64,000 nt of DNA from a virus (taxonomy: Duplodnaviria > Heunggongvirae > Uroviricota > Caudoviricetes). Under the pieces are notes generated by a model. That model was given only the letters and a program-made list of their open reading frames with translations, was not told where the DNA came from and made no database searches. The translations under genes were made by a program, and so were the position numbers. Position 1 is the first letter of the stretch. Every line of letters begins with the position of its first letter. Below are positions 27,533-64,000 of the stretch, piece after piece. The DNA is taken from IMG/VR virus record IMGVR_UViG_3300043447_000408, positions 1-64,000 of that record; one strand, written 5' to 3'.

Positions 27533-27533
27533 T

Positions 27534-29255: not shown

Positions 29256-29258
29256 AAT

Positions 29259-29879: not shown

Positions 29880-29880
29880 A

Positions 29881-30879: not shown

Positions 30880-30882
30880 TAT

Positions 30883-46723: not shown

Positions 46724-47377
46724 TTATATCAGAGATTTTTCTTTTTTTATATAATCGAACCCAACATTACCGGCAACCACAATTCTATCTATAGTTGAGT
46801 TAGGTGCATTATTTGGGCTATGTGGCATATCCGCCTCCATAATAATTAAATCATCTTCTTCGGGTCTAATCCAATATTCTTTTTTATTGTTTCCTTTAAA
46901 ATATAAAACTCCGTCTTCACCATTCATAACATCAGGCATTTGAATATAATAAACGTACGTATAATGAGGAATAAATGATTTAATTTCTTTGTTTATGTCT
47001 GTGTGTACGTGATATTTGTCTACCCCTTTCAATTCCTCGTGTTTGAATTGTATTTGAACTGGGTCAGTCGAGCGGACAACGTTAACCCAAGCATCTGTAT
47101 TAATTTTATTATATAAAATATTTTTTTCTTTGTATAAATCTTTACAACGGTCAATTCCAATTTGAATGATTTCATCCATTTTTGTTTTAATATCAATTTC
47201 ACCAGTAAAATTGATATTCTGATTCCATTCTTTTACAAAACCATACCCATCAGTTTTAACATCTGGTTGGGATTCTATAATAGAATTGGCTTCTTTTAAT
47301 AAATCCGTTTTATCAGATAAACGATTTAATTTACCTCTCCAAATATATGTCTCTTCGTCAAAGTATAATTTCTCCAT
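46724..47377 (-). CDS. putative cupin/2OG-Fe(II) oxygenase-like protein
   Basis: HVHTD and distal MPHSP, RIVVAG; weaker match. Confidence 0.4.
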   Translation of the reverse strand: MEKLYFDEETYIWRGKLNRLSDKTDLLKEANSIIESQPDVKTDGYGFVKEWNQNINFTGEIDIKTKMDEIIQIGIDRCKDLYKEKNILYNKINTDAWVNVVRSTDPVQIQFKHEELKGVDKYHVHTDINKEIKSFIPHYTYVYYIQMPDVMNGEDGVLYFKGNNKKEYWIRPEEDDLIIMEADMPHSPNNAPNSTIDRIVVAGNVGFDYIKKEKSLI

Positions 47378-47378
47378 A

Positions 47379-48623
47379 CTATATCAATTCTTTTTTAAGT
47401 ACTTTTTTGTTCTTTCTGAAAATGGTTAGATAATTGTTTACAAAAAAAGTAAGTTCGTTTGGTGTAATATCTTCCAATTCAAATGATGATAGTAATTCCA
47501 CATCACTTCTAACTGTGATTGAGTTATTTTTGTCTAATATCTTTTTTAGTTTTGAAGGTATCGGCATTGATGTACAGTCTTTCCAAAACTGCGTGTCATC
47601 TCTCTCACACAAATAATGATATCTTATGAAATTTAAATTCTGTTCGTTTATTTGATAACACCATTTATTATATCTCTCAACATATTGTTCATCGAAGTTT
47701 AAATCAATTAACTTCTTTAACTGCATTATAGTCGACATCAATGATGTCGCTTCTAAAGGTTCAATAAACCCATAAGATAGTCCTATCGATATACTATTCC
47801 CAATCCAACTTCTTTTATGTGTACCAGGATTAAAGTTAAAAACTTTTTGTAAAGTTACTTCGTGACCTAAACGATTCTCAATCTCTTTCTTTGCATCTTC
47901 TACGGTTATATATTTGTCATTGAAAACATAACCGCAACCCCATCTATGTTGTAATGGGATTTTAAACATCCAACCACAATCCATCGACACCATCTCGGTA
48001 TATGTCTTATCATTTAATTGATATTTGTTTTCTTGTGGTAAAAAGAACGCTATTGCCTTATTCATCATCAAGTAATCGGTATACCCAATCCACTCTTCTT
48101 TATGTACACCATCAATAACGATTTTAGCAAATCCACTACAATCAAATACAAAATCTAAATCAATGGTTGTACCATCTTTCATTTTTAATTCTGAAATGAT
48201 ACTATTTTCATTTTTTATCTCACTCACCTCACCGTCAACCCAATTAACTCCTCTACTAATTGCAATTTCTTTAAAGTATTGTGCAACTAATCTTGCATCA
48301 AAATGATAAGCATACGATTTATTAAATTCGCTTGGTCCGTCACCAAAGAAAAGATGCTTTGATAATTCATTATTACCTGTCCAATTATATAAATGTAATC
48401 CACCTTTTACTGTTGATTTAGTTTTCTCAAAGAATTCATTCTGATTAATATCTAATAACACGAGCATCTTACCGAAGTTGGATGTTCCTCCTTCACCAGC
48501 ACCCAATATTCCAATTTTAGAACTCTCTACTAATGTAACACTAACATCCTTCCAAAATTTATTAACCACCAATGAGGTTAACCATCCCGCAGTACCACCG
48601 CCAATTATTACAACTTTTTTCAT
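47379..48623 (-). CDS. flavin-dependent halogenase (tryptophan halogenase family)
   Basis: N-terminal VVIIGGGTAGWLTS; GWMFKIPL resembling the WxWxIP motif (second W is F); AGEGG near N-terminus. Confidence 0.65.
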   Translation of the reverse strand: MKKVVIIGGGTAGWLTSLVVNKFWKDVSVTLVESSKIGILGAGEGGTSNFGKMLVLLDINQNEFFEKTKSTVKGGLHLYNWTGNNELSKHLFFGDGPSEFNKSYAYHFDARLVAQYFKEIAISRGVNWVDGEVSEIKNENSIISELKMKDGTTIDLDFVFDCSGFAKIVIDGVHKEEWIGYTDYLMMNKAIAFFLPQENKYQLNDKTYTEMVSMDCGWMFKIPLQHRWGCGYVFNDKYITVEDAKKEIENRLGHEVTLQKVFNFNPGTHKRSWIGNSISIGLSYGFIEPLEATSLMSTIMQLKKLIDLNFDEQYVERYNKWCYQINEQNLNFIRYHYLCERDDTQFWKDCTSMPIPSKLKKILDKNNSITVRSDVELLSSFELEDITPNELTFFVNNYLTIFRKNKKVLKKELI

Positions 48624-49168
48624 ATTAAATTTTGTTTATTTGGGGTAGTCTTAATTATCGATACCCAATTTACTAATGAATATCTTGTACCCGATTCAAC
48701 CGGTGTGACTCTATGTCTTAAACCCGATTCGAAAACATATAATGTACCTGCTCTTTTTTGTGAGGGTATGTTGTCACCTTTCGAATCTTTTATTTCTAAA
48801 AATCCACCTTCATAATCATCGTTTAAAAGAATGACAGTTGACACGATTCTTTCTTTAAAGGTGGTTGAGTCCTTATCGGTATGCCAACCATAATACTCCC
48901 CGACTTTGTATTCAGTAAATTGAAAAGAGCCGAGACCTGTGACCTCAGCACCATTCAATTTAAAAGATTCTCTTAATATTTCTTTTAATCTAATATTAAC
49001 ATCACCCAAATCATTAATCCAAGATACTGAAGATTTTCTTTCGTTCGGATTTCCGTTCGCAACTCCTGCAGTTTCTAATGTTAATTCTTTGTGACACTTG
49101 TTTAACACATAATGACATTCATCATTTGATAAAAAGTTTTCAAATATGTAGAATTCATTATTTGTCAT
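48620..49168 (-). CDS. 2OG-Fe(II) oxygenase (P4H-like)
   Basis: WHTDKD, HRVTPV, RYSLVNW. Confidence 0.7.
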   Translation of the reverse strand: MTNNEFYIFENFLSNDECHYVLNKCHKELTLETAGVANGNPNERKSSVSWINDLGDVNIRLKEILRESFKLNGAEVTGLGSFQFTEYKVGEYYGWHTDKDSTTFKERIVSTVILLNDDYEGGFLEIKDSKGDNIPSQKRAGTLYVFESGLRHRVTPVESGTRYSLVNWVSIIKTTPNKQNLI

Positions 49169-49379: not shown

Positions 49380-49725
49380 CGTTGTTTATTTCTCCATTAC
49401 GGATTTTAGTACCACTTATTGCCGCAACATCTGCAGGTGGTTCGTGATAGATTACTTCATACCCAACTCCTCTACCATAATTCACCGATTCAATGTCAGG
49501 AATAATTGATAATAATAACTTATCGAAATTGTCATTAAAGAAAGGTTCTTTAATTAATTCTTCAAACACTTCTCGTGCCGTTTTGGGATTGTTTTCATCA
49601 ACTTCAACATCTCTAATTGCCACCCATACATTTTTACCTTGGTCTAATTGTTGTCTAATTAACCATTCGTGTCCTTTGTGCCAATTCTGCCATCTTCCGA
49701 TGTACAGTGCATACTTTTTACTCAT
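49363..49725 (-). CDS. HxGH nucleotidyltransferase (NMNAT/cytidylyltransferase-like)
   Basis: YIGRWQNWHKGHEWLI (HxGH) and C-terminal ISGTKIRN (ISxTxIR) motifs. Confidence 0.6.
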   Translation of the reverse strand: MSKKYALYIGRWQNWHKGHEWLIRQQLDQGKNVWVAIRDVEVDENNPKTAREVFEELIKEPFFNDNFDKLLLSIIPDIESVNYGRGVGYEVIYHEPPADVAAISGTKIRNGEINNDGSRT

Positions 49726-50156
49726 AAAAATAATTTATTGATTAATTCTGTGTACGATACCATTAATTCGGTATCGGTTGTGTTAATTGATATATAATTT
49801 TCGGTTGGGGGTTCGTAGTCCTTAACGTGAAAGTTTTCCCTACCTCTAATGTCAGTTGTATGAACGTATATTTCAATTGCACCGGATTTACCTTTAAGGT
49901 CATCCCTTAAATCTTTATATGGTGACACTAACGACGCCACCACATTGTATCCTTTTTCATTTAGAAAATATGCAATATCCATAGCCTTTTGAATATTTGC
50001 ACGTCTTCCATTTTCAGAATAATCTTTATTTTTAAAGATGTCTCTTAAATCGTCACCATCAATGTGAATGGTGTTTCCAACATTTAAATACCCAACTAAC
50101 TTTTTAGCTAAGGTTGTTTTACCTGCACCAGGTTGTCCTGTAAACCAATAAATCAT
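49722..50156 (-). CDS. cysC: adenylylsulfate (APS) kinase
   Basis: FTGQPGAGKTTLA, IDGDDLR, RRANIQKAMDIAYFL, SLVSPYKDLRDD match the CysC consensus throughout. Confidence 0.8.
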   Translation of the reverse strand: MIYWFTGQPGAGKTTLAKKLVGYLNVGNTIHIDGDDLRDIFKNKDYSENGRRANIQKAMDIAYFLNEKGYNVVASLVSPYKDLRDDLKGKSGAIEIYVHTTDIRGRENFHVKDYEPPTENYISINTTDTELMVSYTELINKLFL

Positions 50157-50188: not shown

Positions 50189-51133
50189 TCAAATTCGTAA
50201 AAGATTCAAATAGTCCTCATATCCGTTTGTAATCACAATATGTGTCCATTCGTTAATTCTTTCTGTCCTATATTCCTCATTATTAACGATGTGTGATTTT
50301 TTCAACCATATGTGGTCATATTCTATTTTGGGTGTATTCCTTACAGTACCTTCATATTCCATCCAATCGGAAATGTACCCTTGTTTAAACCTGTTGTCGT
50401 ATGGGTCGGCAAATTGTATGAAAAGTCTGTTCTCAATATCACCTACCTTCAAGTCTAAATGTCTGATTGTGTATCCTAAAATATTTTGGTCCGACATTAA
50501 CCATAACCAATCTAAAACATTGTCATAAGTTTTATTTACAATTCTCATATGAAGTTCACGATACTTGTTAAGTAACAACTTATTATTAACAAATAAGAAT
50601 GATGTATTTGGTATTGCCATCCTTTCCTCAAACTCAGGCATATGTAACTTAACATCATTTAATTGATAGTCGTGGATGTACATATGACCTCTTAACATTT
50701 CCCAATGTGTATGAACAACATCATAATTAAATAACCATTTAGGTAATGGTGTCTTAATTATTAAATCTAAATCTAAAAACACAAATGGTGGTTTTTCGTG
50801 ACAAATAGAAAATATTTTACCACTAGTCCAAAATTGTGCAGGATTGACTAATGTCTTATCTAATTTATTCAATACATCAACATCAATTTCATCAAATAAA
50901 TCGATAAACCCTACCTTCTTGTAGTATTCATAACCAACGGTATCAGTATACAGTTTAATAGGGACTCCTCCATATTTTTTAGCACTGGTTATTGCCGCTA
51001 ATTGCATATACAACTCGTATGGTTGTAATTTATAATCATCCGTTTCGTCCGCAATTGTTATGTCTTTTTTATATCCATTGAATTTGTCTCGATGGAAAAA
51101 TGGTTTTGTCCAATTTACAAAAATTATTTTCAT
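50189..51133 (-). CDS. putative DXD glycosyltransferase
   Basis: FVFLDLDLI DxD-like motif. Confidence 0.4.
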   Translation of the reverse strand: MKIIFVNWTKPFFHRDKFNGYKKDITIADETDDYKLQPYELYMQLAAITSAKKYGGVPIKLYTDTVGYEYYKKVGFIDLFDEIDVDVLNKLDKTLVNPAQFWTSGKIFSICHEKPPFVFLDLDLIIKTPLPKWLFNYDVVHTHWEMLRGHMYIHDYQLNDVKLHMPEFEERMAIPNTSFLFVNNKLLLNKYRELHMRIVNKTYDNVLDWLWLMSDQNILGYTIRHLDLKVGDIENRLFIQFADPYDNRFKQGYISDWMEYEGTVRNTPKIEYDHIWLKKSHIVNNEEYRTERINEWTHIVITNGYEDYLNLLRI

Positions 51134-51760: not shown

Positions 51761-51877
51761 TTAGTGTTTATAAATGAATGGGTCTCTTTTTTTAAGTTCG
51801 GCTAATTTCTTTTTAAATTCTTTTTTCTTTTTCCATTCTACCCATTTGTGGGTTAACCATCCAATAAATGCTTTCAT
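51761..51877 (-). CDS. small basic protein (38 aa), not in ORF track
   Basis: ATG overlaps the TGA of the upstream carbamoyltransferase gene (ATGA); MKAFIGWLTHKWVEWKKKKEF... Confidence 0.3.
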   Translation of the reverse strand: MKAFIGWLTHKWVEWKKKKEFKKKLAELKKRDPFIYKH

Positions 51878-53511
51878 TTGTTTCCGTTTTTATAGATAAT
51901 ATAATCACCAATCACCAATATGTCCATAGCAGTGTCCAAATATGTTAGTATAGCATCTTCTGGTGTTAAAACCATTGTTTTATCTTTAACATTAAAAGAT
52001 GTATTCAATAATATTGGGTAATCAGTTCTCTCTTCAAATTCTTTTAATAGATGATAAATTGGGTTATTTGGTGTGACAGATTGAACTCTAGCACTACCAT
52101 CAACGTGTGTAACCGCAGGTAACTTATCTCTATATTTTTTTAACACATTAACCACTTGATTCATATATGGAATATATTCTTTTGAATCAAAGAACTCACT
52201 TTGACGTTCAAAAATTACCATAGGGGCAAATGGTCTAAACCCTTCTCTTTTTTTAATAACTTTATTAATCCTTTCTTGCATATCGGGTACTGTTGGATTT
52301 GCCAATATTGACCTATTACCCAACGCCCTTGCACCAAATTCTATTTTATCTTGGAACCACCCAACAACTAACCCCATACTTAAATATTGTGCAGTTCTTT
52401 TATATAATCTTTCTTTTGTATGTTTTCTATAAAATATTTTATGTCCGTATTTGTTTAATGTATTTTGAATTTCATTATGACTATAAGAAGGACCTAAAAA
52501 TGGTGTTGGTGAAATTCTCACATTAAGTCCTTTAACTTTTGATAGGTAGTCTAAACAAGAACCAATACAAGAACCTGCGTCAGAAGGTGCCGGTGGAACC
52601 CATACCTTTTTAAAAATTCCGTTTTTAATTATTTTACCATTAGCACATCCATTATATGCACAACCACCCCCAATACAAATGTTATCTGAATAATAAAACA
52701 ATTTCGCATCTTTTATTAATTGAAAAAACAACTCTTCATATCTTTCCTGTACTGATGCTGCTAAGTCTTTGTGGTCATCGGTAAGAGGTGTATTTGGTAA
52801 TCTGTTTTCAATACCTAACAAATCAGCTAATTTGTAATTAAACATTGTGTCATCGGATTTATTCCATATGAAACAATCCATATTACAGGATAATTTATAT
52901 CCATCAAAATTAATTAACTGAGCAACTTTACTTCTAAATCTTTCGGGGTCACCATATGCGGCCAAACCCATTACTTTATACTCACCTTCGTTTGGTTTAA
53001 AACCCAGAAAAGCAGTCATTGCAGAATAATATAACCCTAATGAATCAGGGTATTCGATTGTCTTAATATTATGAACCACTCCATTAATACCTTTACCAAA
53101 TGAAACCGTTGAAGTTTCACCAACACCGTCAACAGATACTATAACCGCCTTATCAAAATTCGATGATAAATACGAATAAGCCATATGTGACATATGGTGT
53201 GAGGTATAGTGTATCTTATCAGATATCTTTCTTAAATTCCACCAAACTTTAATGTTGGTTTTTAGTGAGGTAAAAAAAGATTTCTTTCTTTTGAATCTGA
53301 GTCTTGGGTTTTCATAATAACAAACCGCTTCAATGTCCGATTTTTTTAAATTGAAGTGGTCAAAAATGTATTCTATGGTCTTTTCAGGAAATGAACTATC
53401 GTGTTTGATTCCAGTGAACTTTTCTTCCTCACAAGCAAAGACTAATTCCCCATCTTTAAAAAGACAAGCAGAAGAATCGTGATAATATGCGGATACTCCA
53501 ATAATATACAT
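51874..53511 (-). CDS. carbamoyltransferase (NodU/CmcH family)
   Basis: 545 aa; N-terminal IIGVSAYYHDSSACL signature. Confidence 0.8.
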   Translation of the reverse strand: MYIIGVSAYYHDSSACLFKDGELVFACEEEKFTGIKHDSSFPEKTIEYIFDHFNLKKSDIEAVCYYENPRLRFKRKKSFFTSLKTNIKVWWNLRKISDKIHYTSHHMSHMAYSYLSSNFDKAVIVSVDGVGETSTVSFGKGINGVVHNIKTIEYPDSLGLYYSAMTAFLGFKPNEGEYKVMGLAAYGDPERFRSKVAQLINFDGYKLSCNMDCFIWNKSDDTMFNYKLADLLGIENRLPNTPLTDDHKDLAASVQERYEELFFQLIKDAKLFYYSDNICIGGGCAYNGCANGKIIKNGIFKKVWVPPAPSDAGSCIGSCLDYLSKVKGLNVRISPTPFLGPSYSHNEIQNTLNKYGHKIFYRKHTKERLYKRTAQYLSMGLVVGWFQDKIEFGARALGNRSILANPTVPDMQERINKVIKKREGFRPFAPMVIFERQSEFFDSKEYIPYMNQVVNVLKKYRDKLPAVTHVDGSARVQSVTPNNPIYHLLKEFEERTDYPILLNTSFNVKDKTMVLTPEDAILTYLDTAMDILVIGDYIIYKNGNK

Positions 53512-53520
53512 CTATTATAA

Positions 53521-54546
53521 TTATTTAGTTTTCATTATTAGACCGTTAAGTCTGTTGGTTAATGATAATAAGTACTTATAGTACATTAAACTAATCTCAT
53601 CAGACTTTGTCTGTTTAGGAAACATATTATCAATAATTGCAATGTAGTTTAGACCATTAAAATCTTCAATGATGCGTTCTTTTATTAAGAAAATAATCTC
53701 TTCAAAATTTTTATATCCATTCAAATGTAAAAATCCATTAAAGTCGAACATCACTCTTTTAAATAAATTGTGATAATCATCAACCATAGTTAAATCTTCA
53801 CCAGACCTTATTCCAAAAGGAAAATCCCAATCTTTACCTTTACTAAACTCAATATATGTTGGATTATATTCAAATAGGAATTTGAAGTTTTCTAAATTGT
53901 GGTCACCCTTTATCATTCTCATCGCTGCAGGAATGAATAGTTGTTCAATGATACAAGCGTTATAATAATTTGAATCGAAAAAGTCAGTATGGTTTTGGTA
54001 TAGTTCTAAACAATATTTTGAAGATTCTTTAATCAATTCAAAGTTATGTCCACCAAATACTGACATATTCGGAACATTATTGAACTTAACGTATTTTAAA
54101 AACTCTTCGGGTAACTTACTTTGGATTTCAAAACTTCTTTTTACGTATGTTGTATAAAAAGAAGTATTTGTTCTTTCAAAGTTAAGTATGTCTCCACTAC
54201 CTTCCGCAAAGGTGGAGTATATGTTTTCAAAATCATTGAAGAATATCTTTTTAAAAATAAAAGTATCTAAATCAATGTGAATGTAAGGTTCAGTTTGTTG
54301 TGAATAAACAACTAATTTAGGTACTGAAAAGGTTTTAACATTCACGTCTTTTAAAACGTCAGTGTTGATTTCATCATAGGGTAAACCTATCTTTTTAACG
54401 ATATCACCCACCTCTTGATTTGTATACAACACAACATACCCATAATGTCTTTTAGCTAACAATAGAGATAATGACATTAAATAAAATATATTTTTATTTA
54501 ATGGACCGCTATTTCCTGTTTGTATGTATGTGTGTACTATTTTCAT
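53521..54546 (-). CDS. putative DXD glycosyltransferase
   Basis: YIHIDLDTFIF. Confidence 0.4.
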   Translation of the reverse strand: MKIVHTYIQTGNSGPLNKNIFYLMSLSLLLAKRHYGYVVLYTNQEVGDIVKKIGLPYDEINTDVLKDVNVKTFSVPKLVVYSQQTEPYIHIDLDTFIFKKIFFNDFENIYSTFAEGSGDILNFERTNTSFYTTYVKRSFEIQSKLPEEFLKYVKFNNVPNMSVFGGHNFELIKESSKYCLELYQNHTDFFDSNYYNACIIEQLFIPAAMRMIKGDHNLENFKFLFEYNPTYIEFSKGKDWDFPFGIRSGEDLTMVDDYHNLFKRVMFDFNGFLHLNGYKNFEEIIFLIKERIIEDFNGLNYIAIIDNMFPKQTKSDEISLMYYKYLLSLTNRLNGLIMKTK

Positions 54547-55283
54547 ATACTTTTAAAGTCAGAGAAATCTCCACTTTTTTCAACTAATTGTTTGAAGTTA
54601 ATATATGTATTTTTTTTGTCTTTTTCAACCAATGACTCCCATTTTTCCGCAATCATATCCATACTTTCAGTATAATACTCAGGTAACCTTGTCTTTACCC
54701 AATCCAAATGGGTTGTTATTGTTGGATGTGAATCAAATTCATCAATAAAGTTATATTGTGGTTTGCCTTCATTAAAATCCATTAAATTATCTGCGGTTAA
54801 TATTTTTTGTAGTTCGTTACTACAATTAACCATTCTTTTTGGTATGTTTTCTAATGTCCCCTTTTGTGATGATATGTCAAATGCTGACATAAACTTATAC
54901 TCACAACCAATACTATCTAATAAGTACTTTACACTCAATATGTTGTACCAACTCATAAAATATCCGTGTTCATCGGTCCAATATTTGGTGACAAAATCGT
55001 GACCATATAAAGTTTGATTGTAAAGATTGCCAGCGTTTATCCAATTGGAATTTTTATCAATCATATCATTTCTGAAATATTGACTAAACATCACCAATAC
55101 TGTATCATCCTTAGTAAACTTATTTACTGAATTACATTCAAATAGTCTCGATGATATAAAATAGTTACCAGCACCAGCATTAGCCCAATTTTGATGGGTG
55201 TCAAAATTTAGTGCAACAAAATCTGCCCAAGTGGGCCAAATATAACTCGTAAAACTACAACCAAATGTAAAAAGTCTACCCAT
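54543..55283 (-). CDS. SGNH hydrolase-like protein (GCS variant)
   Basis: block I LFTFGCSFTSY, block V DSHPTITTH. Confidence 0.55.
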   Translation of the reverse strand: MGRLFTFGCSFTSYIWPTWADFVALNFDTHQNWANAGAGNYFISSRLFECNSVNKFTKDDTVLVMFSQYFRNDMIDKNSNWINAGNLYNQTLYGHDFVTKYWTDEHGYFMSWYNILSVKYLLDSIGCEYKFMSAFDISSQKGTLENIPKRMVNCSNELQKILTADNLMDFNEGKPQYNFIDEFDSHPTITTHLDWVKTRLPEYYTESMDMIAEKWESLVEKDKKNTYINFKQLVEKSGDFSDFKSI

Positions 55284-56547
55284 TTAATTCATTCCACATT
55301 TCTAATAAAACTTCCCTTATTGTTGATGATTGGTCACTCTCACTATACTTCTCTTTATAGATTCGATTATAGTTTTCTTTATTGTGAACTAATACCTCTT
55401 GTATCTCTTCTCTAATTTTAATTAACTCTTCTTTCGATTTCTGCTTCAATTTTAATAGTTCATCAACTATCATTTTACTTCTCTTATCTCTATCAGGTTC
55501 ACTATCATAACTTTCGTCCCACCATCTATCAAAAGTTTTATAACCAATTGATTTTAAATACTTTAATGAACCTTCATTACCATATAATAAGAACGGATGA
55601 CCAACCATAATCGGTTTCCATATCTTTTCCGAAAAGAATAGTGTACCAGTGTCTACCAATGTTTCAGTAACAACTGAAACAAAAGTTCTTTCAAAATCTT
55701 CAGTGGTTATGTTACACGCGAGATTGAATCGTAGTTCTGGCATACTATCAATCATAAATGGTGTGTTGTTGAAGAAAAAGTGATGAACTTCAGGAGGTAC
55801 AGGATAAGGTAACGGATGTACGATTTTATCTAAACTTATTAACCCGTCATATATTAATCCCTTTTCATATAAATCAATCATAAAACGTAATCTATGGTGT
55901 CTGGGTTGACGATTGTAGGATAGGAATAGGTATTTGTCATCACTTGGTTTAAAGTCCACCATTGGTCCTTTATATTGATTCCACGGTTCAAAATAGTGAA
56001 TACCTCTTGCTTGGTATCCAAGACCTTTGTTTTTAACAATTTGTTCAGATAATAGATTACCACAGACGTAGTAAATTGAATCGATTGGGAAATTCATCTG
56101 TAATCTCCACTTTTCAATCATTTCAAAATCATAGTTGTTTTGGATACCAGAATAACCCTCATAAATGAAGAACATCAATATTTTACACTTACCATTTCTA
56201 ATATCTTCAATATACTCAGGAGATATACACTTCAACCCAATCTCGTTGTTAAGTGTGAAAAAATCGTGACTATACACGTTGATTATGTATATGTGTTTGG
56301 AATCACCAATCTCCTCTTTTGGGGTGTATTTTATCAGACTACTATGGGTTGGTGTGATGGAATTTCTCATATGTCCGTCTTGAAACATCTCACCTTGTTC
56401 GGTGTACACATTCCATTGACCCCACATATGTGGTATTGCCAATCTCTTTAACTCCTTAATGTACCAGGTTTTGGACGAACCGTTTGGTCTATAATAGTTT
56501 AGAATACTGTCCCAATCCTCTAAACTGCAAATAATTTTTTCTTTCAC
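55276..56547 (-). CDS. putative fucosyltransferase-like glycosyltransferase, paralog of 58758-60041
   Basis: LSYNRQPRHHR, FSEKIWKPIMVGHPFLLYG (GT10-like EKxW), WDESYDSEPDRDKR shared with paralog. Confidence 0.45.
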   Translation of the reverse strand: MKEKIICSLEDWDSILNYYRPNGSSKTWYIKELKRLAIPHMWGQWNVYTEQGEMFQDGHMRNSITPTHSSLIKYTPKEEIGDSKHIYIINVYSHDFFTLNNEIGLKCISPEYIEDIRNGKCKILMFFIYEGYSGIQNNYDFEMIEKWRLQMNFPIDSIYYVCGNLLSEQIVKNKGLGYQARGIHYFEPWNQYKGPMVDFKPSDDKYLFLSYNRQPRHHRLRFMIDLYEKGLIYDGLISLDKIVHPLPYPVPPEVHHFFFNNTPFMIDSMPELRFNLACNITTEDFERTFVSVVTETLVDTGTLFFSEKIWKPIMVGHPFLLYGNEGSLKYLKSIGYKTFDRWWDESYDSEPDRDKRSKMIVDELLKLKQKSKEELIKIREEIQEVLVHNKENYNRIYKEKYSESDQSSTIREVLLEMWNELNG

Positions 56548-56628
56548 AGTTTAAATATAAAAAATTTTTTCTTAAATTTAAAGTGGTTGACTATTGATAA
56601 AAAATTATTTAAATTAGTGTTTACAGAT
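56548..56628. promoter_or_regulatory. divergent intergenic region at strand switch
   Basis: AT-rich 81-nt gap between minus and plus gene blocks. Confidence 0.25.
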
Positions 56629-57597
56629 ATGAAAATTTTAATCACAGGAGGTGCTGGATACTTAGGTTCAGTGATAACAAAAAAACTACTCGATTTGGGT
56701 CATAAAGTGACTGTAATTGACACGTTATTGTTCAATCAGATTTCCCCACTCCAATTTACTTACAATCCAAATTATAACTTCATTTATGGTGATGTTAGAA
56801 ACCTAACCCTGTTTGAAAGGGAAGTTAAATCTCACGATGTTATAATTCCACTAGCCGCAATTGTTGGGTTCCCTGCTTGTAAAAAAGACCCTGAATTAGC
56901 AACACAAATCAACTATAACCAAATCATTAATTTGATGAACTTCATTAGTCCAAATCAAATGATTATCTATCCAAACACAAATAGTGGATATGGTGTTGGT
57001 AAAGATGATAAGTTTTGCACTGAAGAATCACCATTGAATCCGATATCGGTATATGGTGAAACTAAATGTGCTGCGGAAAGACATTTACTTAATTACACCA
57101 ATGCGACTTGTTTTAGATTAGCAACTGTATTTGGTTCTTCTCCAAGAATGAGAACTGATTTGTTGGTAAATGAGTTTGTTTATAAAGCAATGACAGACAA
57201 GTACATTGTTGTATTTGAAAAACATTTCAAACGTAACTTCATTCATATTCAAGATGTTGGTGATGTGTTTACATTCGCTCTTGAAAATTATGAAACAATG
57301 AAAGAGAATGTTTACAATGTTGGGTTGAGTGACGCTAATTTAAGTAAACAAGAATTATTAGAAAAAATAAAATTATACATTCCTGATTTTGCAATCACTT
57401 ACTCAGATTTCTATGAAGACCCTGACAAAAGGGATTACATAGTTTCAAATGAAAAGATTGAAAAGACGGGATGGAAACCAAAGTGGTCTTTGGATGATGG
57501 TATTAAAGAACTGATGAAAACATATCAAGTACTAATACCAAAAATGACATCGGAATTTAGAAATGGATTTCCATTAGGATACGCAAACAATACATAA
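56629..57597 (+). CDS. NAD-dependent sugar epimerase/dehydratase
   Basis: start at ATG giving MKILITGGAGYLGS (track ORF begins at upstream TTG); YGETKCAAE. Confidence 0.8.
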   Translation: MKILITGGAGYLGSVITKKLLDLGHKVTVIDTLLFNQISPLQFTYNPNYNFIYGDVRNLTLFEREVKSHDVIIPLAAIVGFPACKKDPELATQINYNQIINLMNFISPNQMIIYPNTNSGYGVGKDDKFCTEESPLNPISVYGETKCAAERHLLNYTNATCFRLATVFGSSPRMRTDLLVNEFVYKAMTDKYIVVFEKHFKRNFIHIQDVGDVFTFALENYETMKENVYNVGLSDANLSKQELLEKIKLYIPDFAITYSDFYEDPDKRDYIVSNEKIEKTGWKPKWSLDDGIKELMKTYQVLIPKMTSEFRNGFPLGYANNT

Positions 57598-57598
57598 T

Positions 57599-58144
57599 AT
57601 GAGTAATAAATGGGATGAGTTTGTTGAAACTCCATCAAAAGTTTTTGGTTATGAAGTACCAATTTTCACTCCTTCGATTTATAGAGAATATAGGGGTGAA
57701 ATTTTTACCACGTTTCATAGTGAAGAACATCCTGTGATGAAACATATTCATTATGATAAAAGTGAAATCTCAATTCACGGAAGATTTTCAAAATCATATA
57801 AGGGTGTTCTAAGAGGATTACATTACGATACTAAAACTTGGAAATTAGTTCAGGCTGCTGTTGGTGACATTTACTTGGTTGTGTTAGATATGAGACCATC
57901 ATCACCGACATATGGTGATTGGGAATCATTTATGATAACTGAGAAAGATAGAAACCAAGTATTAGTTCCACCAGGTTTTGCAAACGGACATTACGCACTA
58001 ACTGATTGTATGTTTCACTATAATCTATTCTATAAAGATGGTTATGTGGATGCAAATGAACAAGGTGTAGTTAAATGGAATGACCCTGAGTATCAAATGG
58101 AATGGCCGACAGATAAACCAATATTACAAAAAAGAGACAGATGA
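57599..58144 (+). CDS. RmlC-like cupin sugar 3,5-epimerase
   Basis: EYRGEIFTTFH, KGVLRGLHYD, HYALTD. Confidence 0.75.
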   Translation: MSNKWDEFVETPSKVFGYEVPIFTPSIYREYRGEIFTTFHSEEHPVMKHIHYDKSEISIHGRFSKSYKGVLRGLHYDTKTWKLVQAAVGDIYLVVLDMRPSSPTYGDWESFMITEKDRNQVLVPPGFANGHYALTDCMFHYNLFYKDGYVDANEQGVVKWNDPEYQMEWPTDKPILQKRDR

Positions 58145-58773
58145 TAAAAAATTTAGATGACCATCTACCAATTGTTAGGGAGATGTTATGGGATAAAGAA
58201 GGACTTATACAATTTGAGAGAAAAATGGCCGACCATTGGGAAGCTGGTAGAGTTCGTGGACCGATTCACTTAAGTGGTGGAAATGAAGATGAACTAATTG
58301 AAATTTTCAAAAGAGTTAAAACAACAGATTGGGTATTCTCAACTTGGAGGTCTCATTATCACGCATTGTTAAAAGGTGTACCTTCTGAATGGTTAGAAGA
58401 GGAGATATTAGCTGGTAGGTCAATTACAATTGTGAATAAAGACGAGAAGTTTTATTCATCCGCAATTGTTGGTGGTACAATTCCAATTGCTGTTGGTGTT
58501 GCTATGGCTTTGAAACAACAAGGTAGTAAAGATAAGGTGTGGTGTTTCGTTGGTGATATGTCTTTCGAGACTGGTGGTTTTATGGAAAACTACAAATACG
58601 CCAAGAACTTTGACCTCCCAATTCAATTTGTAGTTGAGGATAATGGTGTATCAACAAACACTCCAACAATTGAAACTTGGAAAGTAAAAACTGAAGCACC
58701 TGAGGGTGTAATTTGGTATAATTATATTAAACAATGGCCGCACTACGGAACAGGTAAATGGGTAATTTTTTAA
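58141..58773 (+). CDS. TPP-binding subunit of split transketolase/E1-like enzyme
   Basis: thiamine-diphosphate motif GDMSFETGG...FVVEDNG. Confidence 0.7.
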   Translation: MIKNLDDHLPIVREMLWDKEGLIQFERKMADHWEAGRVRGPIHLSGGNEDELIEIFKRVKTTDWVFSTWRSHYHALLKGVPSEWLEEEILAGRSITIVNKDEKFYSSAIVGGTIPIAVGVAMALKQQGSKDKVWCFVGDMSFETGGFMENYKYAKNFDLPIQFVVEDNGVSTNTPTIETWKVKTEAPEGVIWYNYIKQWPHYGTGKWVIF

Positions 58774-60041
58774 ATTTAGTATATGACGATTGGCACCACA
58801 ATGCAACTCATCCAAATATTAATGGTGAGAAGGAATTTGGTGCGAATAATTTCAGAAGATTCGATGGTTTGATGAATTTTTATGAATTTAATAATTTCAA
58901 AAGATTTAGGATAACGGAGGTTAAGAATCATCCTAATGAAAATTTCTATTATGTTATTGGCCATATTCACGAGATTGGTCACGCATTAAAAGCTCATAAC
59001 ATATTACCATTACCAACCAAGGTAATTAAACATTTAAAAGAAAATCCAAACCTCTATGTTATTTTTCTAAATGAACACGAGGTGGAAACTGAAGAAACCG
59101 TTATTGGAATTGAAAAATGGGTAATTGATAAGGGAATCGACCCAAAACAAATATATGTTATCAACAACAATTACAATTTAAAGAAGTATAAAGAGGATAA
59201 CAATTTAAGTTTGAATGTCCATACAATTAAGTTCTTACCAATTAAAGTTGCTAAGGAGTTAGATATGTACGATACTGATTTCATAACTGATAAACAATCT
59301 GAATTTTTTGTTTCACATAACAGGACACCAAAAGTTCATAGATACGCTCTTTTAGTTTTACTTAAAAAGAACAAATTGTTACAGGAAGTTGATTGGTCTT
59401 TGGTGATGGGGTGGAATCATAAAATGGATATGAAACACACAACAATAAACACCTTCTATCACGAATTATTCACAGAAAAGGAAATTCAAAAAATGAAATC
59501 TGAGATTGATTTTTTTGAGGATATTGATATCAAGAAAAGTAAGTACGAAGACAATATTGATTGGTTTGATAGGGATTGGGATAGTCACGTAAGGAGTCTT
59601 CCGTTTCACATTGAATGGAATCGAGTTTATGAGAAGCAAACATATGAGAACTCATACGTTAACATAACTACGGAATCTTGTTTTAAAAGAGATAATGTTG
59701 TCCATTTAAGTGAGAAAACATTCAAACCTCTTTTCTTTAATCAATATCCGCTTTATGTTGCAAGTATGGACCACGTAAAGACTGTAAAAGATGTTTATGG
59801 GTTTGATGTGTTCGAAGATATATTAGACCATTCATATGATTCTGAATCTGACCAAAGAAAACGATTATTCAAATTGTTTGATGAGATAAAGAGAATATAT
59901 AAAAATAAAAACAAGTTCATTTCAAATTACATTAACCTAAAAGATAGGTTTGAAAATAATAAAAAGTTAGTACTGGAATTATTAAATAACAAAGATGATG
60001 TGGAGTTTTTCACATCACTAATCGAAAATAAGAAAAAATAA
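58758..60041 (+). CDS. putative fucosyltransferase-like glycosyltransferase, paralog of 55276-56547
   Basis: FVSHNRTPKVHR, LSEKTFKPLFFNQYPLYVAS, LDHSYDSESDQRKR. Confidence 0.45.
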   Translation: MGNFLNLVYDDWHHNATHPNINGEKEFGANNFRRFDGLMNFYEFNNFKRFRITEVKNHPNENFYYVIGHIHEIGHALKAHNILPLPTKVIKHLKENPNLYVIFLNEHEVETEETVIGIEKWVIDKGIDPKQIYVINNNYNLKKYKEDNNLSLNVHTIKFLPIKVAKELDMYDTDFITDKQSEFFVSHNRTPKVHRYALLVLLKKNKLLQEVDWSLVMGWNHKMDMKHTTINTFYHELFTEKEIQKMKSEIDFFEDIDIKKSKYEDNIDWFDRDWDSHVRSLPFHIEWNRVYEKQTYENSYVNITTESCFKRDNVVHLSEKTFKPLFFNQYPLYVASMDHVKTVKDVYGFDVFEDILDHSYDSESDQRKRLFKLFDEIKRIYKNKNKFISNYINLKDRFENNKKLVLELLNNKDDVEFFTSLIENKKK

Positions 60042-61814
60042 ATGAAAAAAATTTTAATTACAGGTTGTTCAGGTTTAGTCGGTGTTCATTTGGTTAAGGA
60101 ATCGATTATGAGAAACCATTTAGTCATTGGTGTTGACAAAGTTAAATCGGAGCATTTACCAGAATCTGATAGGTTTAAGTTTTATGAATTAGACCTTATG
60201 AATGAGGAGAACATTACAAAATTATTTGAAGAAGAAAAACCAGACGCAGTATTCAACTGCTTCGGTGTTAAGGGTTCACCATTAAAAGCTAAAACTCAAC
60301 CGGTGGACTTTCTATATCCATCACAAAAAATCAATACTGAAATAATTCACCAATGTGCCAAAAATAACGTTTGGTTAGTTTTTGTAAGTTCTGTTGGTGT
60401 TTACTCTCCTGCTGAGAAATTCTTAGAAACTGATGTATGGAAGACATTACCTTCTGAAAATGATTGGTTTCCTGCTTGGTCAAAAAGAATTGGTGAGTTA
60501 TTGGTAGGTGCATATAGAAAACAATATGGTTATAAAAAATGGACTATTGTTAGACCCGCAAACATATTTGGTGAGTATGATGATTGGAGTGGTAATGGTA
60601 CTGTAATCTCAAGTATTATTAAGAAAGTATATGAAGCCGAGGATGGTGGTGAAATTGAAGCTTGGGGAGATGGTACACCTGTTAGAGATTTTATTTATGC
60701 TAATGACGTTGCAGTTGCTATTTTAAATTGTTATAAGAATAGAGTGAATGACGTAGTTAATTTAGGTTCTGGTGAAACGATAACAATTCAATCAATGATT
60801 GAAGAGGTTATTAAAATTAGTGGTAAAAATTTAACCATTAAATGGGATAAATCAAAACCAAATGGAGATATGCGTAGACAAATGGATACCAGTCTTCAAA
60901 ACGGTTATCAACTATTACCTTTTGTAGGATTTAAGGAAGCACTTAGAAGAACGTATAGTTATTATGAAAAACACTATGGTACACTTGAATTGAATATGGA
61001 CATTGAAGAGTATCTTGAAAAGGGATTTTATGTTGGTAAAGTTAAAGAATTTATTAAAAAACACGAATGGGATGATTATCTAAAAAGATTAGAAAATATT
61101 AGAAAAAAATCTGAAGATAAGAAAGGTTATGGATATCGTTTTGAATTTAGAATACCAACAGACTATTCTGAAGAAGGATTTGATTATGTTAGAACAATAC
61201 CCGCAGATGAGATAGAAGAAAGAGAAAAATTCGTTACCGAAAAAGGTTGGGATGTTGTTCAGCGTTGGTGGGAGTTGAGGGATAGTGAAGGAAATTTCAA
61301 TGACGATATATTCTACTTTAGAGATAAGGTATCAAGATTTGTTCATAAGATATATCCTGAAGTAAAAGAATGGAATATTGGGCACAACGATGGGTTAACA
61401 ATTTATGAAAATGGTGACTTTATTGAACCTCATATTGATGGTCAAAATCCTGATAGATATTGTGTGGTATTAATTTACTTATCAGACGAAAAAGACTATA
61501 TTGATGGTGGAGGAAAATTAATATTACAAGATAAGGGATATTATGATGAAGTAATTCCAATCCATTTAAATTTTGCAATGTTAGATTTCTCAAAAAATAA
61601 TTCAAATCACACAGTTGAAATGGTTAAGAATGATTTTAAAAGATTTACATACATTAATTTCATTCAAGTTAGACCTTATAGTCCTCCCGCAAGATACAAT
61701 GGTAATGAAAAAATTGAAGAGGTGTGGGAACCTGATACTGATGTATGTTATGGTAAACCATTTGAGATTCCACAAACTAATGATGTAAAAAAAGTTAAAA
61801 AAAGTTTAATATGA
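60042..61814 (+). CDS. fusion protein: NAD-dependent epimerase/reductase + 2OG-Fe(II) oxygenase
   Basis: N-terminal MKKILITGCSGLVGVHLV Rossmann; C-terminal EPHIDG, NHTVEMV, RFTYINF; ends KKSLI like other oxygenase paralogs. Confidence 0.7.
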   Translation: MKKILITGCSGLVGVHLVKESIMRNHLVIGVDKVKSEHLPESDRFKFYELDLMNEENITKLFEEEKPDAVFNCFGVKGSPLKAKTQPVDFLYPSQKINTEIIHQCAKNNVWLVFVSSVGVYSPAEKFLETDVWKTLPSENDWFPAWSKRIGELLVGAYRKQYGYKKWTIVRPANIFGEYDDWSGNGTVISSIIKKVYEAEDGGEIEAWGDGTPVRDFIYANDVAVAILNCYKNRVNDVVNLGSGETITIQSMIEEVIKISGKNLTIKWDKSKPNGDMRRQMDTSLQNGYQLLPFVGFKEALRRTYSYYEKHYGTLELNMDIEEYLEKGFYVGKVKEFIKKHEWDDYLKRLENIRKKSEDKKGYGYRFEFRIPTDYSEEGFDYVRTIPADEIEEREKFVTEKGWDVVQRWWELRDSEGNFNDDIFYFRDKVSRFVHKIYPEVKEWNIGHNDGLTIYENGDFIEPHIDGQNPDRYCVVLIYLSDEKDYIDGGGKLILQDKGYYDEVIPIHLNFAMLDFSKNNSNHTVEMVKNDFKRFTYINFIQVRPYSPPARYNGNEKIEEVWEPDTDVCYGKPFEIPQTNDVKKVKKSLI

Positions 61815-62785
61815 TAAATAAAAATTCAAAAATTTTAATAACCGGTGGTTCTGGTTTGGTTGGGCAAAACTTAACAAATAGGTTAGTGTCCGAAGGATAC
61901 AACAACATAAGAGTTTCTTTACACGCTAGAGAACCAAGAATAAAACATATGGATGTAGAATATTGGTATTCTGATTTACAAACACAAGAAGGTTGTAAAA
62001 CTATTACCAAAGATGTTGATGTTGTTTTTCATTGTGCAGCATCTACTTCAAATGCTGTTGATACTGTCAATGACCCATTAGCTCACGTAACTCCAAATGT
62101 TGCAATGAACAATTTTTTAATTGATGCCGCTTGGAGAAATAACGTTAAACATTATGTATTTATTTCATCGAACACTGTGTATCCACCTAAAGGTGATGAA
62201 CCTGTGGTTGAAACTGATTTCTTATTTGATGAACCTTATCCTGTTTATTTCCCTGTTGGTTGGATGAAACGTTACGCTGAGGTTCAATGTGAATTGTATG
62301 CAAAATACTTACCACGAACAATGAAATGTACTGTCATCAGACCTGCTAATTTGTTTGGCCCTCACGATAAGTACGATTTCAATAAGTGTCACGTAACACC
62401 CGCAACTATTCGTAAAGTTGCTGACCAATTAAATCCAATTCCTGTTTGGGGTGATGGTACTGAGTTAAGAGACTTACTATATGTTGAAGATTTTGTTGAA
62501 TCTTTACAAGTTGTAATGGAAAATGAAACTGAAATGTTCCAAGTATATAACGTTGGTTCAAATAAAGTTTATTCAGTACTTGAAGTATTGGATGAAATGA
62601 AGAAAATTGCAAACTACGATGCACCTACTGAGTTCATTAGTGGTAAACCTTCAATGATTCCAACAAGAAAAATCGATTCAAATAAAATAAAAGATAAATT
62701 AGGTTGGGAAGCTAAAACTTCATTATCTGAAGGTTTAGAGAAAGCCTACGAATGGTATAACGAAAACAAAAACGAATTTAATTAA
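61811..62785 (+). CDS. NAD-dependent epimerase/reductase (GDP-sugar synthase-like)
   Basis: ILITGGSGLVGQNL, VFHCAAS. Confidence 0.75.
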   Translation: MINKNSKILITGGSGLVGQNLTNRLVSEGYNNIRVSLHAREPRIKHMDVEYWYSDLQTQEGCKTITKDVDVVFHCAASTSNAVDTVNDPLAHVTPNVAMNNFLIDAAWRNNVKHYVFISSNTVYPPKGDEPVVETDFLFDEPYPVYFPVGWMKRYAEVQCELYAKYLPRTMKCTVIRPANLFGPHDKYDFNKCHVTPATIRKVADQLNPIPVWGDGTELRDLLYVEDFVESLQVVMENETEMFQVYNVGSNKVYSVLEVLDEMKKIANYDAPTEFISGKPSMIPTRKIDSNKIKDKLGWEAKTSLSEGLEKAYEWYNENKNEFN

Positions 62786-63594
62786 TGAAAAAGGGAATAG
62801 TATTTGCTGGTTGTTCTTTTACTTGGGGTCAAGGTCTTTATTATTATTCAAAAATGAGTACAGTTAAAGAACCCGCACCCGAACAATTCGAACAAAAATT
62901 AGTAACAGATGCACATAAACGTTTTATGTCTACTTTAAGATTTCCAAGATTAGTCGCAAATCATTTTGAAACATTTGAAATTGTTAAAAAAGAAAATGGT
63001 GGTAGTGAGGACGAGTCGTTATTGTTTTTAGATTACATTTTTACCAATAGAAACGGATTAACTCACTTACTTGAGGAAAAATTTTCATATGAAGAAATAG
63101 GGTATGCCGTTTTCCAAACCAGTCAACCAGGTAGATGTTCATTTACATTTACACATAAGGGAAATGACCACAAAATGAATTGGATTGGTTCGTCTCAAGG
63201 AATCCAAAGAATCTTCTTTGAATGGATGGAAGAAAATGGTATTGGTGGATTTCCTGAATGGTATGTTGAACACTGTAAACAACAAGTTAAAAAAATTAAA
63301 GAGACGTTTGAATTTTTGGAGAGTAAGGGTATTAAGTGTATAATTGTTAATTGGCAAGATGACTATGTTAAGTATGTTAAGGAAGACCCTTATTTACACG
63401 ACAGAATGGTCTATCTAAATTATAACGGTACTGAATATACCAATATCGATTATATGATGAGACTTAATAATGGTTTAACCATTAGAGATGATTTTGATGA
63501 ATTAGGAGAACATCCACCGAAAGATTCTCACCCATCTAAAAAATGTCATAGAATAATTGCAGACGCAGTAATCAAAAAAATAGAATCATTATGA
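62785..63594 (+). CDS. SGNH hydrolase-like protein (GCS variant)
   Basis: block I IVFAGCSFTWGQG, block V KDSHPSKKCHRIIADAV. Confidence 0.55.
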   Translation: MKKGIVFAGCSFTWGQGLYYYSKMSTVKEPAPEQFEQKLVTDAHKRFMSTLRFPRLVANHFETFEIVKKENGGSEDESLLFLDYIFTNRNGLTHLLEEKFSYEEIGYAVFQTSQPGRCSFTFTHKGNDHKMNWIGSSQGIQRIFFEWMEENGIGGFPEWYVEHCKQQVKKIKETFEFLESKGIKCIIVNWQDDYVKYVKEDPYLHDRMVYLNYNGTEYTNIDYMMRLNNGLTIRDDFDELGEHPPKDSHPSKKCHRIIADAVIKKIESL

Positions 63595-64000
63595 GTTCAC
63601 CACAATACACCCCATATAAGGACGCTTTAACCAAATCAATGACTTACCTTGGTCAACAAGAAGATACGGTCTTCTTGGGTCAGCAAATCCTTTGGCACGG
63701 TAATCCAATGAGTACAACTATCGGAGAAGTTCCAAAAGATAAGTTAATTGAACTTCCTGTTATGGAAGAATCGCAAATGGGAATGAGTTTAGGTATGGCA
63801 ATGGCGGGTAAAACTGTTATTACATTTTATCCTCGATGGGATTTTTTAATTTGTGCAACTAATCAATTAGTAAATCACGTAGATAAAATTAAATTAATGA
63901 GTAATCAAGAATGGAATCCTAATATGATTATTCGATTAGGTAAGGGTTCTGATAAGCCATTAGACCCTGGTCATCAACATAGAGGTAGTTATTTAGCATC
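63591..64000 (+). CDS. transketolase C-terminal-like / E1-beta-like subunit (3' truncated by window end)
   Basis: ATGA overlap; ELPVMEESQMGMSLGMAMAGK...LICATNQLVNHVDKIKLMSNQ...IRLGKG matches pyrimidine-binding domain of TPP enzymes. Confidence 0.7.
   Translation, partial: MSSPQYTPYKDALTKSMTYLGQQEDTVFLGQQILWHGNPMSTTIGEVPKDKLIELPVMEESQMGMSLGMAMAGKTVITFYPRWDFLICATNQLVNHVDKIKLMSNQEWNPNMIIRLGKGSDKPLDPGHQHRGSYLA

Follow-up and report, generated by a model that had tools for sequence, protein, structure and literature searches.

We analysed a 64,000-nucleotide stretch of DNA from IMG/VR record IMGVR_UViG_3300043447_000408 (positions 1 to 64,000; hereafter the window), which comes from a large tailed marine phage. 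Two plus-strand genes near its end, alpha (58141-58773) and beta (63591-64000, cut at the window end), encode with high confidence the two subunits of one working thiamine diphosphate (ThDP) enzyme, the heteromer itself being predicted from the sequences. The partnership follows from natural fusions of the two halves, the adjacency of the genes in cellular genomes, their co-linearity in phages, matches to E1-alpha and E1-beta chains in the PDB, invariant motifs, and low ratios of nonsynonymous to synonymous substitution rates (dN/dS). Judged by its domain content, the enzyme is a minimal version of the E1 component of the 2-oxoacid dehydrogenases, reduced to the two cofactor-binding domains and independent of an E2 partner.

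Alpha (210 residues) matched the Pfam family E1_dh over profile positions 8-179 of 300 (E-value of 2.1e-15; 57 bits against a cut-off of 22) and the NCBIfam model PDH_E1_alph_y (2.2e-25). Its best sequence matches in the PDB were the E1-alpha subunits of pyruvate dehydrogenase (PDH) and branched-chain 2-oxoacid dehydrogenase (BCKDH), and the alignment spanned residues 51-206 of 365 in human E1-alpha. The initial annotation of the window had assigned a ThDP-binding PP domain to this open reading frame (ORF) from a GD...EDNG motif, which was confirmed as G138-D139-M140 (58552-58560) followed by E166-D167-N168-G169 (N168 at 58642-58644). With 27 residues between GDM and N168, alpha shows the PP-domain fold and the GDG-X(24-30)-N motif of E1 enzymes, Met replacing the third Gly, and 63 distinct relatives share this cofactor motif. 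AlphaFold gave a compact model of alpha, with a predicted local distance difference test score (pLDDT) of 95.5, that could be superposed on human PDH E1-alpha with a root-mean-square deviation of 1.7 Å over 165 columns (Foldseek E-value of 6e-12; TM-score of 0.68 by query length and 0.40 by target length). All 50 best fold neighbours of the model in the PDB were E1-alpha chains. More than 7,800 close alpha homologs were present in metagenomes, 553 IMG/VR stretches encoded a relative, and the family (E-value of at most 1e-30) formed 130 clusters at 50% identity, nearly all of 195-255 residues. In one metagenomic homolog (P0251, 550 residues), '...RVFVF' and 'CGDMAAETG' are separated by an intein (Intein_splicing, 7.5e-17), which sits one residue ahead of the ThDP/Mg motif; insertion sites of this kind are typically positions critical for function. 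The N-terminal region of a further homolog (P0299) is LAGLIDADG-like.

The partial beta ORF (136 codons) had been annotated as a pyrimidine-binding (PYR) domain. It carries the ELPVMEE...MGMSLGMAMAGK signature and matched Transket_pyr with 24.7 bits (2.1e-5), slightly below the cut-off of 27, and the NCBIfam PDH E1-beta model PRK09212 (6e-8), which bears out that reading. The initial annotation called for downstream sequence to complete this ORF, and this was found in two IMG/VR contigs (L007 and L008), where beta was identical over 136/136 window residues and complete at 182 residues (L007:15451-15999), ending in ...VIVEYPELYYEA, with a convergent PhyH-family gene lying 30 nt further on; the alpha of these contigs differs from that of the window by one amino-acid change. 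By this measure, the full window beta would end at about 64139. The eight genes of the region described below and the 182-residue end of beta recurred in a 99%-identical contig and in L004 (95% identical), and the same end was seen in the contig of P0001. The best PDB sequence matches of the 182-residue ORF were E1-beta chains (3e-6). Glu59 of 'PVME' (63765-63767), the predicted catalytic residue, aligned with the cofactor-activating Glu ('DTPLNE') of E1-beta and was invariant in 59 sequences. The initial annotation had counted a premature stop in this ORF, or alignment of the two proteins to non-partner families of ThDP enzymes, against a split enzyme. Beta does stop early compared with canonical E1-beta (~325 residues), but it does so as a family-wide architecture, with lengths of 171-200 residues in every locus examined, and the families matched by the two proteins are the partners E1-alpha and E1-beta. 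Beta is thus a PYR domain alone, short but not a truncation, since the same short architecture is found throughout the family, natural fusions included.

For both subunits, the closest known proteins in sequence and fold were the alpha2beta2 E1 components of PDH and BCKDH, which likewise carry the ThDP/Mg motif in alpha and the activating Glu in beta. Unlike these, the phage alpha lacks the C-terminal third of E1-alpha, including the active-site loops for reductive acylation and the phosphorylation-loop region, the phage beta lacks the transketolase-C (E2 peripheral-subunit-binding) domain, and the genetic context is glycan biosynthesis. The C-terminal parts that are missing here serve E2 docking and reductive acylation in E1 structures. 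No lipoyl or 2-oxoacid-dehydrogenase acyltransferase family, as expected of E2/E3 partners, was detected with Pfam among 38 distinct window ORFs (the first 20 kb being covered in part) or among the neighbours in related loci. Because the parts for reductive acylation are missing and those of the cofactor site are retained, the enzyme should act as a free decarboxylase/carboligase, working like the corresponding half of E1, and because two features that define E1 dehydrogenases are absent, it was not classed as an E1 dehydrogenase.

Two other classes of ThDP enzyme were considered and rejected. For transketolase, there was no match to Pfam Transketolase_N, the NCBIfam transketolase model gave 21.7 bits against a cut-off of 488, and the C-terminal domain was absent. 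The initial description of a split transketolase/E1-like enzyme was therefore retained as regards the PP and PYR halves of one E1-type ThDP enzyme, whereas the transketolase part was dropped, as alpha aligned with E1_dh, beta with Transket_pyr, and neither with Transketolase_N. For a ThDP flavoenzyme resembling YerE or acetolactate synthase, a weak TPP_enzyme_C match (3.9e-6) covered the cofactor motif alone, neither TPP_enzyme_N nor a middle domain was found, and the PYR domain was of the Transket_pyr type.

Both halves occur in a single polypeptide of about 400 residues in the cyanophages S-SM2 (402 residues) and P-TIM68, in the order PP, linker, PYR, stop, and metagenomic proteins of about 400 residues also join E1_dh and Transket_pyr. 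The cyanophage proteins (S-SM2 SSM2_198 and P-TIM68 AIR93527) are annotated as 'transketolase central region-containing protein' and are 45% identical to alpha and 31-36% identical to beta; a literature search on this cyanophage protein found nothing. They share with the window pair the two-domain content, the lack of a third domain (the fusions, too, stop after PYR), and a location in a phage glycan island, but differ in being a single chain with a canonical GDG. Among cellular loci of bacteria and archaea, alpha and beta were adjacent in 11 of 12, 6-60 bp apart, and these pairs included one on a 2.7 Mb Desulfosudaceae contig and one on a 588 kb bacterial contig (L090). The related phage loci comprised 80 IMG/VR loci and L004, of which 68 have beta downstream of alpha. 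Both genes and all that lies between them share one strand in each of these 68. As a separate observation, L090 carries not only the minimal pair but also, about 5 kb away, a pair of canonical-size ORFs (310 and 312 residues), the first of which has an E1-alpha-like tblastn match; the two pairs lie at L090:2843-4720 and L090:9986-11156. This bacterial glycan locus also has genes for GT2 glycosyltransferases, short-chain dehydrogenases/reductases (SDRs), a GHMP kinase, and an aldo-keto reductase.

Both genes are under strong purifying selection, with dN/dS values of 0.02-0.07 for alpha and 0.01-0.12 for beta in split and adjacent arrangements alike. These values bear on the reading of alpha and beta as decayed, non-functional remnants of an E1 or fusion gene split by cassette insertion. 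That reading could draw on two ORFs far shorter than canonical E1 subunits, a GDG that reads GDM, and a distance of 4.8 kb, but the catalytic motifs are invariant in at least 60 distinct sequences, the thousands of close homologs are of equal length and diversified into the clusters described above, the alpha model is compact and confident, and the same short architecture is found in fused and adjacent forms. The conservation data effectively refute decay, which we consider scarcely credible.

The genes around alpha and beta were examined for the likely substrate. From about 56629 to the window end, eight plus-strand ORFs each abut their neighbour or overlap it by 1-16 nt, and this tight packing led us to read them as a single operon, which beta closes; in IMG/VR relatives, the convergent PhyH-family gene comes next. 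Megablast of 56500-64000 against cultured phages gave no match, exact-protein look-ups of the window alpha and of the 269-residue ORF described below returned nothing or merely a 1.3 kb contig, and promoter and terminator scans of 56000-64000 gave signals at or under shuffle expectation.

The operon is headed by an SDR of 322 residues (56629-57597; Pfam Epimerase, 5.8e-33), a predicted GDP-heptose C4-dehydrogenase. The mechanical ORF call placed its start at TTG 56587; ATG 56629 was preferred, giving the same length as in relatives. This SDR matched PDB entries 6VO6 and 6VO8 over nearly its full length (residues 2-303; 8e-115) with many identical positions, and it carries the motifs NTNSGYG and YGETK but no TDE, so it is not a 4,6-dehydratase. 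It also stands first in the operon of most related loci. Next is an RmlC-fold cupin (57599-58144; Pfam dTDP_sugar_isom, 5.6e-33), a predicted GDP-4-keto-heptose 3- or 3,5-epimerase, whose best PDB sequence matches were the GDP-D-glycero-4-keto-D-lyxo-heptose 3-/3,5-epimerases of Campylobacter jejuni (7M14, 8DCL, 8DCO, and 8DB5; ~1e-35), compared with 1e-23 for dTDP RmlC. Of 78 loci, 49 have the epimerase gene immediately ahead of alpha, and 62 have it no more than two genes away.

These neighbours point to GDP-heptose chemistry of the Cj1427/Cj1430 type rather than to a dTDP or CDP 6-deoxyhexose route. The C. jejuni route runs from the C4-dehydrogenase Cj1427 through the C3/C5-epimerase Cj1430 to the C4-reductase Cj1428 and is established (PMC10680097). 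The first two operon genes are close homologs of enzymes of this pathway (8e-115 and 1e-35), and two SDRs further downstream that resemble GDP-fucose synthase (Fcl) are similar to the Cj1428 reductase. The Campylobacter pathway has no ThDP enzyme, whereas the minimal phage operon has alpha and beta where the reductase would be. This minimal operon, found in L039, L041, L043, and L045, consists of dehydrogenase, epimerase, alpha, beta, and nothing more. In the three loci seen in full (L039, L041, and L045), an opposite-strand gene follows beta, and in L041 and L045 another lies ahead of the operon. None of the three has a further SDR-cluster gene, which leaves alpha/beta as the sole candidate consumer of the 4-keto sugar there. 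The upstream homologs and the four-gene operon together make GDP-4-keto-heptose the likely substrate. The heptose-activation, kinase, and ketoreductase genes near the enzyme in S-SM2, P-TIM68, L061, L090, and L093, described below, agree with it.

Precedents for such an activity exist in actinomycete secondary metabolism, where the E1-like pairs AviB1/AviB2 (eurekanate of avilamycin) and Pau11/Pau12 (paulomycose) are genetically tied to a pyruvate-derived acetyl branch at C4 (PMC4425429, PMC4753412). The phage genes resemble these pairs in being separate E1-alpha-like and E1-beta-like genes in a sugar cluster with no E2/E3 among the ORFs scanned, and in their proposed acceptor, a 4-keto sugar, and proposed donor, pyruvate; the 4-keto acceptor would be supplied, on the homology of the two upstream genes, within the same operon. 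The aldo-keto reductase Pau7 reduces the acetyl branch of paulomycose to hydroxyethyl (PMC4753412), and it has counterparts here in a ketoreductase gene directly upstream of alpha or the fusion, which in the cyanophages encodes a zinc-dependent alcohol dehydrogenase and in L090 an aldo-keto reductase. The non-haem iron oxygenase AviO2 is paralleled by recurrent 2-oxoglutarate (2OG) oxygenases. By length and description, the systems differ in that Pau11 (325 residues) and Pau12 (345 residues) are full length (PMC4425429), unlike the phage subunits of 210 and 182 residues. The AviB and Pau pairs are believed to modify a sugar that has already been attached, unlike the phage pair, which probably acts on GDP-heptose, and in the phages the two genes are set apart by a variable cassette. 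The initial annotation had named yersiniose-type clusters as the example of two-subunit enzymes. YerE (yersiniose A) corresponds in the chemistry proposed here, a ThDP-dependent transfer of a pyruvate C2 unit to the C4 carbonyl of a nucleoside diphosphate-4-keto sugar (PMC4753412), but it is a single-chain flavoprotein of another ThDP superfamily, and the one match shared with it is the weak TPP_enzyme_C similarity at the cofactor motif. Two-subunit precedents are provided instead by AviB1/AviB2 and Pau11/Pau12, both longer.

A route can be proposed on this basis. The Cj1427-like SDR would oxidise C4 of GDP-D-glycero-D-manno-heptose or a close GDP-sugar, and the Cj1430-like cupin would epimerise the resulting 4-keto sugar at C3 and/or C5. 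Alpha/beta would then decarboxylate a 2-oxoacid, most simply pyruvate, to give the hydroxyethyl-ThDP carbanion, whose addition to the C4 carbonyl would yield a 4-C-acetyl sugar, later perhaps reduced to 4-C-(1-hydroxyethyl). We infer acceptor, donor, and product from the neighbouring genes, and we give the addition of a 2-oxoacid-derived C2 unit to C4 of GDP-4-keto-heptose about an even chance of being correct. The unusual keto or branched sugar suggested in the initial annotation would, on the same gene context, be the most plausible outcome.

Several points weigh against this route. In the lineage of the window, Met stands at the third position of the GDG motif, which is Gly in the cyanophage fusions. 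PDB entry 6VO6, which we take to be C. jejuni Cj1427, is named there just 'putative sugar-nucleotide epimerase/dehydratase', and confirmation sought in the literature was not obtained. No phosphoheptose isomerase (GmhA), kinase, or nucleotidyltransferase was found among the window ORFs scanned, so the host, or genes outside the window, would have to supply GDP-heptose. The two Fcl-like reductases of the window operon could use up the 4-keto intermediate with no part played by alpha/beta. ThDP carboligases do not usually take ketones as acceptors. The kinase and nucleotidyltransferase genes linked to the enzyme in cyanophages and bacteria are equally compatible with a role at the sugar-phosphate level. 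Even for AviB1/AviB2 and Pau11/Pau12, the transfer is described as occurring 'through an unknown mechanism' (PMC4425429).

Action before nucleotide activation would make the enzyme a mini carboligase resembling transketolase or DXS. It would take a ThDP-bound C2 unit derived from pyruvate, hydroxypyruvate, or a ketose and attach it to an aldose phosphate, and the higher-carbon or deoxy ketose phosphate so formed would enter a route of GmhA, kinase, and nucleotidyltransferase. The lincomycin pathway offers a precedent, with LmbR, LmbN, LmbP, and LmbO leading to GDP-octose (PMC4351081). Genes of the GDP-heptose-activation type (GmhA phosphoheptose isomerase, carbohydrate kinase, and nucleotidyltransferase) flank the enzyme in S-SM2, P-TIM68, and L061, in the two cyanophages together with the zinc-dependent alcohol dehydrogenase. 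A GHMP kinase gene lies near the pair in the bacterial loci L090 and L093, the latter also with a nucleoside triphosphate transferase. One metagenomic homolog (P0322), a cyanophage-type alpha with the GDG motif, has an APH-family phosphotransferase domain fused N-terminally, a fusion that links the enzyme to a kinase step. Weak DXP_synthase_N matches were present, and aldehydes are the usual acceptors of ThDP enzymes. The heptose-activation genes are, however, equally well explained as a GDP-heptose supply for the dehydrogenase. In the lineage of the window, moreover, the enzyme is embedded among GDP-4-keto-sugar enzymes, most often with the epimerase directly upstream, the minimal operon has no kinase, isomerase, or nucleotidyltransferase, and sequence and fold are nearest to pyruvate and branched-chain E1, not to transketolase or DXS. 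We regard action on a sugar phosphate as rather unlikely.

The enzyme could also simply decarboxylate a 2-oxoacid without passing the product on to the carbon skeleton of a sugar. It might then provide an aldehyde or acyl unit for a non-carbohydrate substituent, or act on 2-oxoglutarate, the oxidant of the Cj1427-type ping-pong dehydrogenase. Minimal two-domain ThDP decarboxylases do exist, sulfopyruvate decarboxylase ComDE being one. SGNH-type acyl-handling genes and several 2OG oxygenases are frequent nearby, and the co-substrate of Cj1427 is alpha-ketoglutarate (PMC10680097). Consumption of 2-oxoglutarate would nevertheless oppose the dehydrogenase, the related loci show no conserved acyl-carrier, CoA-ligase, or aldehyde dehydrogenase partner next to alpha/beta, and the four-gene operon offers no other consumer of the 4-keto sugar. 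Decarboxylation without transfer to the sugar was accordingly judged quite improbable.

The separation of the two genes was noted in the initial annotation as about 5 kb of sugar-modifying genes. The gap is 4,817 bp and is occupied by four such genes, as described, but it is not peculiar to the window; elsewhere the interval holds zero to nine genes or the two halves are fused. Among the 68 phage loci with alpha and then beta, the interval held no gene in 6, one in 17, two in 1, and four to nine in 44, and the distinct arrangements numbered 31. A single alpha clade (at least 80% identity) included intervals of one, four, five, six, or nine genes, and the nearest separate alpha cluster (L015) had none. 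Pairwise alpha and beta identities among related loci (L004-L086) were moderately correlated (r = 0.69), and they differed by more than 12 points in 132 of 2,415 pairs, as for L013 and L031, with 70% identity for alpha and 93% for beta; such discordance indicates recombination between the two genes. As the cellular homologs are adjacent and those of cyanophages fused, adjacency is most simply ancestral and the cassette an insertion. The 4.8 kb separation is thus one state of a lineage-wide variable interval, which is a recurrent site of insertion and exchange with alpha and beta as the bookends of a variable cassette. A reversed order was also seen: in L066 and L072, beta precedes alpha on the same strand by about 2.9 kb, and in a 735 kb uncultured phage (LR756501/LR756503, one record) it does so by about 1.3 kb.

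The usual cassette comprises a gene of a family here called U427, one or two GDP-fucose-synthase-like SDRs, often a 2OG-Fe(II) oxygenase, and a gene of a second family, U269. In the window, the inserted block opens with the U427 gene (58758-60041; 427 residues), which encodes a divergent GT-B-fold glycosyltransferase by fold match and has no match in Pfam or NCBIfam. The profiles of U427 and U269 gave no significant match to PDB sequences. The AlphaFold model of U427 (pLDDT 92.3) gave best Foldseek matches in the PDB that were weak (E-value of 3.6e-3, probability 0.96), and the top eight were, except for one protein that is not a glycosyltransferase, GT-B enzymes (trehalose-6-phosphate synthase, WaaA, PimA, and alpha-1,3-fucosyltransferase), with T4 beta-glucosyltransferase slightly lower. 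The 80 related loci held 165 copies, with several paralogs per locus; a window paralog lies at 55276-56547 on the minus strand. Some homologs are tandem-duplicated (~830 residues), and others are fused to UDP-glucose 6-dehydrogenase. U427 is a candidate for an unclassified glycosyltransferase family, as suggested by the fold model.

The second gene of the block (60042-61814; 590 residues) fuses an N-terminal GDP-fucose-synthase-like SDR (Pfam Epimerase, 3.5e-42; NCBIfam GDP-L-fucose synthase, 4.4e-41, below the cut-off of that model) to a 2OG-Fe(II) oxygenase domain at about residues 452-541 (2OG-FeII_Oxy_3, 1.2e-6). The third (61811-62785; 324 residues) is another GDP-fucose-synthase-like SDR (Pfam Epimerase, 6.4e-43), a predicted C4-reductase of a GDP-4-keto sugar, with PDB matches to GDP-fucose synthetase (2.4e-31), GDP-mannose 3,5-epimerase (1e-28), and 7M13 (8e-22). 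The fourth (62785-63594; 269 residues) gave its name to U269, an SGNH/GDSL-like family without a Pfam match and a predicted esterase or O-acyl-modifying enzyme. G9 and S11 (GCSFT), G72-G73, and H249 were invariant across 40 homologs, and a neighbouring phage family that matches Lipase_GDSL_2 aligned with U269 at an hhalign probability of 96% (E-value of 3e-9). These four genes, encoding the GT-B protein, two Fcl-like reductases, and the SGNH protein, may divert or decorate the 4-keto intermediate as a tailoring cassette.

Taken as a whole, the proposal would be that marine phages use an undescribed minimal E1-type carboligase to make a GDP-linked C4-branched heptose, of an unreported nine-carbon class, and that alpha and beta serve as recombination anchors for the exchange of tailoring cassettes among phages. 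This composite picture is tentative and on the doubtful side of possible. If true, the anchors would correspond, on the phage side, to the conserved flanks that border O-antigen and capsule loci in bacteria. The sugar-branching pairs AviB1/AviB2 and Pau11/Pau12 are known from genetics alone, and the phage version, at 392 residues for both subunits together, is much smaller. Characterised enzymes of the Campylobacter type would allow its probable acceptor to be prepared in vitro, so that the chemistry is directly testable. For the evolution of ThDP enzymes, the pair represents an E1 cut down to its two cofactor-binding domains, and for that of phage genomes, a subunit gene pair that brackets a hypervariable cassette. 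As the family is abundant in marine metagenomes, it probably shapes a common phage-directed glycan on the host surface or the virion.

Other genes of the window were also annotated. A gene on the minus strand at 20803-21897 encodes a 364-residue protein of the thymidylate synthase family that is 61% identical to that of Flavobacterium phage vB_FspM_immuto, the closest match to a cultured phage for any window gene, and this hints that the host may be a marine member of the Bacteroidota. The window also contains a T4 RnlA-like gene, whose matches at about 32% identity point to actinophages. The 1276-residue tail fibre (34847-38677, minus strand) resembles in its last 130-180 residues the distal long-tail-fibre tip (gp37-like) of T4-like phages of Vibrio and Synechococcus.

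A second glycan cluster on the plus strand (26177-32615) encodes an epimerase-type SDR along with two glycosyltransferases of GT1 type and three of GT2 type. On the minus strand, a divergent block at 38.7-56.5 kb contains genes for a carbamoyltransferase, an adenosine 5'-phosphosulfate (APS) kinase-like protein, a flavin halogenase, several 2OG oxygenases, DUF6734 proteins, and U427/U269 paralogs. Its halogenase gene (47379-48623, minus strand) belongs to the flavin-dependent tryptophan halogenase family (1.4e-88), and four separate 2OG-Fe(II) oxygenase genes lie in the same block (48620-49168, 46724-47377, 46154-46723, and 41942-42508, all minus strand). The APS-kinase-like P-loop protein (49722-50156, minus strand) and the NodU/CmcH-type carbamoyltransferase (51874-53511, minus strand) hint at sulfated and carbamoylated glycans; homologs of the latter at about 30% identity occur in cyanophages and in Pelagibacter phage HTVC008M. 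Three DUF6734-family proteins are encoded in the glycan island, at 53521-54546, 50189-51133, and 39502-40200 on the minus strand.

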